From NCBI RefSeq assembly GCF_057098645.1, contig NZ_CM169472.1: DNA of 64,000 bases, one strand, 5' to 3'. A program made the position numbers. Shown in pieces: positions 45,001 through 48,000 of this stretch (its first letter is position 1; each line of letters begins with the position of its first letter).

Positions 45001-48000
45001 TTGACGATCAAAACCCGACATCGGGCCGGTATCCAGCCCCAGCGCACGGCAGGCGATGATCAGATAAGCCGCCTGCATGGAACTGTTGCGAAACGCTGTT
45101 TCTTCGGCAAGTTGTGGGCTGGAGGTAAACCAACTGCGGGCATCGCCGTGAGGAAACAGTTGCGGTAACCGTTCATAAAATTCACTGTCCCATGCGACGA
45201 TAGCGGTGACGGGCGCGGTCAGGGTTTTTTGCAGATTGCCGCTGGAAAGCGCCGGGCGCAGACGTTCTTTTCCCTCTGCAGTGCGGATAAACACGATACG
45301 TGCCGGAGAACAGTTAGCTGATGTCGGCCCCCATTTCATCAGGGCATAAAGCTCCCGTAACGTCTCATCGCTGACGGGGGTCTCCCGCCAGCCGTTGTGA
45401 GTGCGGGCATCGGTGAACAGGGTGCTAAGCGCACCTGGGCTAACGGCTTCGTTCATAGCAATTCCTTACAGGGCGGCTTCACGGTGATGTAACAGGCTGG
45501 CAAGCCCGTTGAGTAACAGAGCATTAAACGTTTCGGGATCGGTCACGTTGCAGGCGTGTCCGCCATAGCGCATCACCATTTTCTGGCTATCGGGCAGGGC
45601 GGCATGAAGTTCACTGGAACATGCTGATGGCACCAGCAGATCATCACTGGCGCAGATGATTTGCACCGGGCAGCGGATGCGATCCGCATGGTGACTAAAG
45701 TCAGCGCGTTTGAGGGCGTTAAGTCGACGCAGTAAATTATTTTTGCCCTGAAAATGCGCCAGTGCCAGCGCGTCTTCTGCCTCAAGGCGAGGTGCGCGGG
45801 CCGCCATCCAGTCGGCGGGATAGAGGAACAACGGCTGCGCTTCCACCCATGCCTGCGCGCCACCGCTATACAGTAATCGTTCGCGAACCTGAAAACAGCG
45901 GCGCGTATGGGCGTTTATTCGTAGCCAGCCGTTAACGCTGACCAGCATAGTTACCGACGCGGGATAATCCAGCGCCAGCTGCATCCCCACCAGCGCACCG
46001 AGCGCATGGCCGACCACCGCGTAACGCTCAATCCCTGCGGCTACCAGCGCCTGATGCAGTTCCGCTGCCATCTGGGCGATACTGTAATCTTCTGCCAGCG
46101 TGTCGGGATTATTGCCGGTGCCGCGCTGGTCGTAACAGACTACCTGATACTCCTGCTCCAGCACCGCCAGTTGCGGTAACCAGTAACTGCCGCTACCGCC
46201 AAGACCCGAAATCAACACCACTACGGGCGCATCAGCATAAGGGGGAGGTGAGAGTGAAAGTTTCATCGCGGCCTCACTTGGCGATATGCGCAATTGTGGC
46301 GATTTCCACCAGCGCGTCAGGTTTTACCAGTCCGCACTGAATGCAGAATCGCGCCGGTTTATCACCCGGAAAAAACTCGGCGTAGATTTCGTTAATCGCG
46401 GCGTAATTTTTCCAGTCGGTAATAAAGATGCTGTTGAAGGTCACATCCGCCATCGTGCCACCCGCCGTCTCGATCACCTTGCGGATAGTTTCCAGAACGT
46501 GGCGGGTTTGCGCCTTTGGGTCATCGGCAAACAGCACGTTATTATGTTGATCAAAAGCCAGCGTACCGGAGACATACACCACGCCATCAGCCAGCGTGCC
46601 GGGAACGAAGGGGGCCAGCGGTGCGCTGCTGCCAGCGGGAATAATTACGGATTTTGGCATCGTTAAACTCCTTAAGCGATACGAGCAAAGGACGTGGGAG
46701 AAAGCGCGTCGCAGAACGTTTTGACGTCGCTGACCCAGCCAAAAAAGGTTTCGATATTGAACAACGCAGCTTTCTGTGCAAATTCCGGCCCCGCCTGGTG
46801 AGTTGCGTCTTCCAGCACCACGCCGAAATACTCCAGAAAAAAGCCGTCGCGTAGCGTCGATTCGACGCAGACGTTGGTAGCGATGCCGGTGAAAACCAGA
46901 TGGCGTATTCCGCGGCTGCGCAAAATGCTGTCCAGCGGCGTATTGAAGAAACCGCTGTAGCGCGGCTTCGGCAGCACAATATCACCAGGTTGTGGCACCA
47001 GTTCATCCACCAGTTGATAATCCCAGGAGCCTTTCGCCAGCAATTTACCCTGTAGCTGCGGCTGCTTACGCATGGTTTTCAAGGCGTTCGATTTATGAAA
47101 ATTCGGTGAGCCGGGGCCGCCAGCCTCGACATACTGTTCATCCCAGCCATTTTGAAACCAGATGATCAACATCCCTGCCGCTCGCGCTGCGGTCACGGCG
47201 GTTTGAATGTTGGCAATGACCGGGCGAGTGGTTGAGACATCAAACCCGGCGAGATCTAAGTAGCCGCCTGGCGTGGCATAGGCGTTTTGCATATCCACCA
47301 CGATCAGCGCACTTTGCTGCGGATCGAAGGTAATGGCTTCCGGTCGAGCGGTTAATGTCGTCATCATGCCACCTCCTGAGTCAGCACAGGGAGATGGGCG
47401 CGGCACTGCATCAGTGGTTGAATGCGCTCGCCGAAGGTTTCGATTCCCGACAGAAAATCGTCGAAGGTTAACAGCACGCCTTCGCACCAGGCACGCTTGC
47501 GACTTCATCTAACATGCGCGCGACACTGGCGTAAGAACCGACTAACGTCCCCATATTGATGTTTACCGCCGAAGTGGGATCGGCCATCTGACGGACGTTG
47601 GTGTCAGTACCGGAGCGGGTATCTTTCTGACTTTGTTCGGTTAGCCAGCTTAACGCCTCTTCATCCGCGCCCGCTTTGTAGTGTTCCCATTTGGCGCGAG
47701 CGGCATCGTCGGTTTCATCGGCAATCACCATAAACAATACATAAGAACCAACGTCGCGCCCGGTTTGCTCTGCGGCCTGTTTCATCCGCGCAGCGGTCGG
47801 GGCGAAAGCCGTGGGTGTATTTACGCCTTTGCCGAAACAGAAGTTGAAATCGGCATACTGGGCGGAGAACGCCATGCCAGCGTCGCTTTGCCCGGCGCAG
47901 ATCACTTTCATGGGTACACTCGGTTGCGGACTGACGCGACAATCATTCATGGTGAAAAAATCGCCTTTAAAATCGCTTTTCCCCGAGCCCCACAGGTCGC

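Follow-up and report, generated by a model that had tools for sequence, protein, structure and literature searches.

The window, by which we mean the whole 64,000-nt stretch of DNA analysed here, contains the rut operon in the order rutABCDEFG with a divergently oriented rutR, and both the annotation of matching genomes and the open reading frames of the window agree that this order is retained. In their lengths rutB, rutC, rutD, rutE, rutF, rutG and rutR equal their K-12 counterparts, and they carry no internal stop codons. The remaining gene of the operon, rutA, corresponds to K-12 b1012, which encodes the FMN-dependent pyrimidine monooxygenase RutA (structures 6SGG and 5WAN; family TIGR03612). 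The two share the locus, the gene order and the divergent rutR, their nucleotide sequences are about 98–99% identical, and the protein encoded in the window scores above the TIGR03612 cutoff. However, the window product lacks residues 325–363 and ends in four other residues, KACC, and the overlap with rutB has given way to an untranslated gap of 103 nt. Coordinates of all features are collected in Table 1.

Table 1. Features of the rut locus and the tRNA gene of the window (positions within the 64,000-nt stretch)
Feature	Position	Strand	Basis
rutA pseudogene (ancestral 363-codon gene minus one base)	47364..48454	-	RefSeq span in RM9154-C1; TIGR03612 match
Open truncated RutA frame, 328 aa, MKIGV...VPGAKACC followed by TAA	47468..48454	-	translation
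Site of the 1-nt deletion	47484..47485	-	alignment and SNP table
Premature TAA, four codons past the frameshift	47468..47470	-	translation
Out-of-frame remnant encoding the ancestral C-terminus E325-A363, followed by TGA	47364..47483	-	translation
AGGAGG Shine-Dalgarno for rutB, inside the rutA remnant	47372..47377	-	
rutB, intact, 230 aa	46672..47364	-	
rutC, rutD, rutE, rutF, rutG, full length, without internal stops	43012..46660	-	
rutR, divergent regulator, intact, 212 aa	48742..49380	+	
tRNA-Ser, anticodon TGA, the single tRNA gene of the window	7079-7166	-	

The rutA frame opens at the ATG used in RefSeq-style calls (48454) and closes with a TAA that occupies plus-strand positions 47470-47468. 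Its translation ends in VPGAKACC, exactly as the preliminary description of this DNA had read it. That description ascribed the truncation to a 1-bp deletion, and an alignment of the window with K-12 MG1655, O157:H7 PV15-279, O145:H28 RM13514 and UTME-3 bears this out: over the 1,092 nt of rutA there is one 1-nt gap and not a single other indel. Intact genes carry the codons GGT GCC GAA GGC (G-A-E-G), whereas the window and RM13514 read GGT GCG AAG GC. The lost base is one C of a CC on the coding strand, that is, one G of the plus-strand GG at 47484/47485. It belongs to the codon of Ala324 (GCC), which precedes Glu325 (GAA), and it is present in K-12, O157:H7, UTME-3 and 10 other intact loci. 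An extra G (GCGGAAGGC) had been put forward as the change that would restore the frame; this is the wrong base, because the aligned relatives carry C (GCC GAA).

After Ala324 the shift removes 39 residues (E325-A363 in the numbering of the 363-aa protein), one more than the roughly 38 first estimated, and adds four new ones (KACC), which leaves a protein of 328 aa as compared with 363 aa for the intact form. With an indel relative to intact orthologs and a premature stop four codons later, rutA shows what characterises a frameshift pseudogene.

The ancestral 39-residue C-terminus is still preserved in the neighbouring frame, where it runs to a TGA stop at 47366-47364 that overlaps the rutB start within GCATGATGACG. 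The preliminary description had placed the end of this frame at the rutB start with an ATGA coupling. The overlap itself stands, while its form depends on the start codon chosen: it is ATGA if RutB begins with MMTT (231 aa, as called in two Logan assemblies), and TGATG, an overlap of 1 nt, with the RefSeq start (MTT, 230 aa). In the window the overlap between rutA and rutB is broken, as had been proposed, and 103 untranslated nucleotides separate the rutA stop from rutB.

The lesion is not confined to the window. A 71-nt sequence spanning the junction matched at 100% in 25 of 5,426 complete E. coli genomes and at less than 99% in all other matching genomes; the figure of 25 counts exact matches, and a deletion accompanied by a nearby SNP outside the lineage would escape the BLAST identity bands. 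The exact 328-aa product (P0001) occurs on no fewer than 1,000 public contigs (NCBI, ENA, Logan), among them assemblies built from raw public runs, and 13 further contigs carry variants of the truncated RutA with other start calls. RefSeq lists rutA as a pseudogene with the label 'frameshifted' in both of the carrier genomes, out of the 25, whose annotation was examined, including RM9154-C1. Of the two options left by the preliminary description, a real pseudogene or a sequencing error, the recurrence of the same lesion in 25 complete genomes and at least 1,000 contigs points to the first.

With the 71-nt query only 4,470 of the 5,426 genomes gave any match, which could have meant that rutA is missing from many strains. 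We rejected this idea: the short query has limited sensitivity, and the full-gene query found rutA in 5,421 of the 5,426 complete genomes, as befits a core gene.

The carriers form one lineage. The O145 genes wzx and wzy are present in all 25, and those carriers that are covered by an earlier comparative study are O145:H28 of phylogroup E, with sequence type ST32 or ST6130, from the USA, Belgium and Japan (PMC9144400). Among the 5,426 complete genomes, the junction occurs in every one of the 25 that combine the O145 O-antigen genes with the surrounding haplotype, and no other genome matches it at 100%. Twelve O145 genomes on other chromosomal backgrounds (e.g., O145:H25 CFSAN004176) have neither the haplotype nor the deletion.

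The surrounding 24 kb are matched at 99% or more in 26 complete genomes, namely the 25 carriers and UTME-3, a veal isolate from the USA. In UTME-3 rutA is annotated as intact and the 24-kb match is one base longer; the flanking 24 kb are 99.9% identical and the two rutA sequences are the same save for that base. The sister allele differs in having the extra C and in encoding all 363 aa, and its host strain differs in lacking the O145 wzx and wzy genes, with an unrelated O-antigen cluster between galF and gnd. The intact allele with the same lineage-specific substitutions (WP_059321634.1) occurs on about 70 contigs. Of ten such loci that were fetched, five reach an identity of 99.9% or more with the window across 7 kb. 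Within these 7 kb the deletion is the sole site that separates three carriers from six close intact relatives, and the C is present in all seven outgroups of the 7-kb SNP table.

Taken together, these results lead us to conclude, with a probability of about 90%, that rutA is a genuine, clonally inherited frameshift pseudogene of Shiga-toxin-producing E. coli O145:H28 (phylogroup E, ST32 and its derivative ST6130). One C was lost from the CC on an otherwise unchanged haplotype, so that translation runs into K-A-C-C and stops. The deletion probably had a single origin, after the split between O145:H28 and its non-O145 relatives, UTME-3 among them; the sequence comparisons are most simply read as one recent event on the stem of O145:H28.

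Two attempts to assign UTME-3 to a serogroup gave no result: in a query with wza-wzc the strain was absent among the matches listed, and an asmA-udk query proved not to be lineage-specific, with 100% identity in many unrelated strains. The galF-gnd cluster of UTME-3 was located by synteny; its annotation names no O-group, and O145 is excluded. It contains (L019:23652-35737) an unnamed wzy, a family 25 glycosyltransferase, a CDP-glycerol glycerophosphotransferase, a three-gene block that we read as fnl-type, a WbuC-family gene and a transposase adjoining galF. In RM13514 the wza-wzc segment near the O-antigen locus (L017:29983-39460) is lineage-specific, being matched at 99% or more in only 26 genomes; a few kb away, asmA-dcd-udk is shared at 100% identity with numerous commensal and livestock strains that are unrelated. 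The contrast points to a recombination boundary close to the O145 O-antigen region.

A separate observation concerns the database record ETJ70801.1, a 329-aa truncated RutA of the O145:H28 type that was deposited as 'Escherichia coli ATCC 35150', a designation which we take to be O157:H7. In the O157:H7 genome that we compared, rutA is intact and represents another allele. A wrong label or a mixture may lie behind the record.

The default explanation for the spread of the deletion is drift or hitch-hiking, by which it would have been carried to fixation together with the clone. An alternative is that inactivation of RutA was itself selected in O145:H28, for example because it avoided reactive Rut intermediates or a wasteful breakdown of uracil in the bovine or human gut. 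The Rut pathway yields toxic intermediates and supports growth of K-12 only at low temperature, which would fit such a benefit. Moreover, nearly all other E. coli possess rutA, and still the lesion has become fixed throughout the sampled members of this successful clone. Loss-of-function mutations have also been reported to be common, and possibly adaptive, in this serotype (PMC9144400).

On the other hand, hitch-hiking would produce just this pattern, one event that became fixed in a clonal lineage; we found no sign of independent, convergent inactivation of rutA, and the rest of the rut operon is untouched. We consider adaptive loss unlikely, and the same doubt applies to the more specific proposal that positive selection shut off the oxygen-dependent first Rut step to the advantage of the O145:H28 ancestor in its cycle between cattle, humans and produce. 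If selection did act, the benefit might lie in the sparing of uracil or in the avoidance of reactive peroxy and aminoacrylate intermediates, and the intact rutB-G would be kept for some other use.

How severe the truncation is depends on what the lost segment contributes to the protein, and family models give different answers. The RutA model TIGR03612 (355 positions) recognises the truncated protein with 665.4 bits, above its cutoff of 498.3, but covers positions 1-326 and thus falls short of an end-to-end match; the intact sister allele scores 725.2 bits and is covered over 1-354. The Pfam model Bac_luciferase extends only to residue 320 and gives the truncated and the intact form the same score. 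By this looser definition the domain of the truncated RutA is 'complete'. Structures of RutA have been solved (6SGG, 5WAN), and its likeness to other solved luciferase-like monooxygenases reaches to about residue 352.

A direct view of the segment came from the alignment of 35 full-length homologs with identities of 29-99%, which were retrieved in a search of 1.84 billion representative proteins. Residues 325-349 match the remainder of RutA in conservation (mean majority fraction 0.52 vs. 0.48), and G326, F331, D333, F341 and P347 each occur in 71-91% of the homologs. All 35 reach at least position 350, and variability is limited to the last 10 or so residues. The part lost in the window is thus conserved in the family. 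An AlphaFold2 model of the intact RutA, built on the homolog alignment, has a mean pLDDT of 90.4; a strand at 324-331 and a helix at 334-353 are predicted with pLDDT values of about 95-97, and the last 10 or so residues are poorly modelled.

As judged from this model, the deletion removes the last β-strand and the last α-helix of the luciferase-like TIM barrel. From residue 325 on, the window product departs from the intact sequence, and with its end at residue 328 it does not contain a complete (β/α)8 barrel. A TIM barrel that lacks one β/α unit is generally unable to fold. Since the final β/α unit of the barrel is the one removed, loss of folding and activity would be expected, and the 328-aa RutA is probably unable to fold or function.

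It might be argued that the shortened protein is still active, its C-terminal tail being dispensable, and that the Rut pathway is retained. A score of 665 bits against a curated RutA cutoff of 498, coverage of the whole Pfam domain model and the intact state of all downstream rut genes agree with this idea, as does the variable and poorly modelled end of the protein. The cut at residue 325, however, lies outside this variable tail. It takes away a confidently modelled barrel strand and helix, together with residues common to 71-91% of the homologs, none of which ends before position 350, and the missing β/α unit would by itself be expected to preclude folding. A functional 328-aa RutA hence appears highly improbable to us.

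Even less probable is that a full-length RutA is produced by recoding, through a -1 ribosomal shift or slippage of the RNA polymerase. In its favour, the other frame has kept the C-terminal coding sequence without any change, up to its end at the rutB start; such a preserved remnant is simply explained by the recency of the deletion. No slippery heptamer of the form X XXY YYZ was found in the last 90 nt of the rutA frame before the stop, the site has no run of four or more identical bases, and only four codons lie between the shift and the stop. Programmed frameshifts are expected to be conserved across orthologs; the rutA frameshift is seen in one clone only, and all other E. coli examined as well as the 35 homologs have a single open reading frame. 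We also considered whether the remnant is translated separately as a C-terminal fragment and rejected this, the only candidate start being a GTG at 47477 without a properly spaced Shine-Dalgarno sequence.

The second option of the preliminary description, namely that the base is really present, that rutA is intact and that the frameshift is an error of sequencing or assembly, has next to no probability: the lack of one base is typical of assembly errors and the quality of the source sequence could be questioned, but the identical deletion in 25 complete genomes, which come from several laboratories and countries, and in at least 1,000 contigs, some of them assembled from raw public runs, the 'frameshifted' label in both RefSeq annotations examined and the position of the deletion outside any homopolymer run (it lies in a CC dinucleotide, the nearest run of four or more bases being a TTTT about 30 nt away) exclude it.

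The doubt about source quality stems from a comparison of the window with complete genomes. The window is identical to none of those in the collection; the closest is RM9154-C1, with which it is collinear from 6315 onward. Between 6315 and 50000 (43.7 kb) the two differ at 12 sites (12131, 17296, 21166, 23968, 25385, 25463, 25552, 25554, 37265, 38701, 44695 and 46722). Seven of the eight coding differences are nonsynonymous; the changes include HyaE G109C, GfcE S32R, GfcC P61L, CbpM R91H, RutF N54S and RutB E215K. This excess suggests either very recent mutations that have not yet been purged or a lower accuracy of the source assembly.

Two of the changes, RutB E215K at 46722 and RutF N54S at 44695, are private to the window and derived, because all other compared sequences, outgroups included, have the other base. 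The differences from RM9154-C1 do not affect the conclusion on rutA. Four of the 12 sites fall within 170 bp (25385-25554) of the gfcA-cspH intergenic region, and this cluster may reflect a short recombined patch or a hypervariable site.

The first 6,314 positions are not collinear with RM9154-C1. They comprise a lambdoid prophage tail region followed by the effector gene tccP2, and BLAST returned the staggered repeat matches that are typical of a varying number of proline-rich repeats in tccP2, along with a different tail-gene segment. An N-terminally truncated fragment of the effector gene espV (6592-7166), a pseudogene in RM9154-C1, adjoins the tRNA-Ser gene, and the two mark the junction between prophage and chromosome. 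In the equivalent 64-kb region espV carries the only pseudogene flag besides rutA.

What the lesion means for the genes downstream can be considered at two levels, expression and metabolism. An AGGAGG motif lies 4 nt before the first rutB ATG and 7 nt before the RefSeq ATG, and at this spacing rutB could initiate without coupling to rutA. Translation of rutB from its own strong Shine-Dalgarno sequence is thus probable, and rutB-G could still be expressed, although they would receive no substrate from RutA. Lesions in rutC and rutD have been described as polar on downstream genes (PMC8113886). On the coding strand of the 103-nt gap we found no intrinsic terminator, and the gap has only a mild excess of C (C/G 1.14), so its sequence neither supports nor excludes Rho-dependent polarity.

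With regard to metabolism, RutA and RutF together open the uracil ring in the first step of the pathway, RutB hydrolyses the ring-opened product, and at 23 °C cells need the operon to grow with uridine as the sole nitrogen source (PMC8113886). Loss of the ring opening by RutA/RutF would be predicted to abolish growth on uracil or uridine as the sole nitrogen source, despite intact rutB-G and rutR. The most likely consequence is that O145:H28 has lost the first step of the Rut pathway, for which protein structure and conservation argue strongly. The downstream rut genes show no decay beyond the two private substitutions of the window strain, which is compatible with a very recent loss or with an operon that is still of some use.

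The lesion is an ordinary lineage-specific frameshift pseudogene of a well-characterised gene, and it has to be regarded as already known, because public annotation already records the rutA frameshift. In the O145 literature that was searched, comparative-genomics papers on O145:H28 included, we found no mention of rutA or of pyrimidine use, and nothing was found on strain UTME-3. The closest parallels are the loss-of-function deletions described in Shiga-toxin-producing O145:H28 (PMC9144400), in which, as here, single-base deletions truncate the product in the same serotype. Those, however, lie in genes for adhesins, autotransporters and type III secretion and differ from strain to strain, whereas the rutA lesion, which is not mentioned there, hits a core metabolic gene and occurs in each of the clone's 25 complete genomes.

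The importance of the finding is limited. It settles the frameshift of the window as biology and not error. Because the downstream genes are untouched and a sister allele exists that differs by one base, rutA of O145:H28 is a clean natural example of the very recent pseudogenisation of a core metabolic gene. Since the junction is present in all 25 genomes with the O145 genes and the haplotype and has no other 100% match, it could serve as a marker of the clone. The practical value would lie in a predicted metabolic defect and a possible clone-specific marker for a regulated food-borne pathogen.
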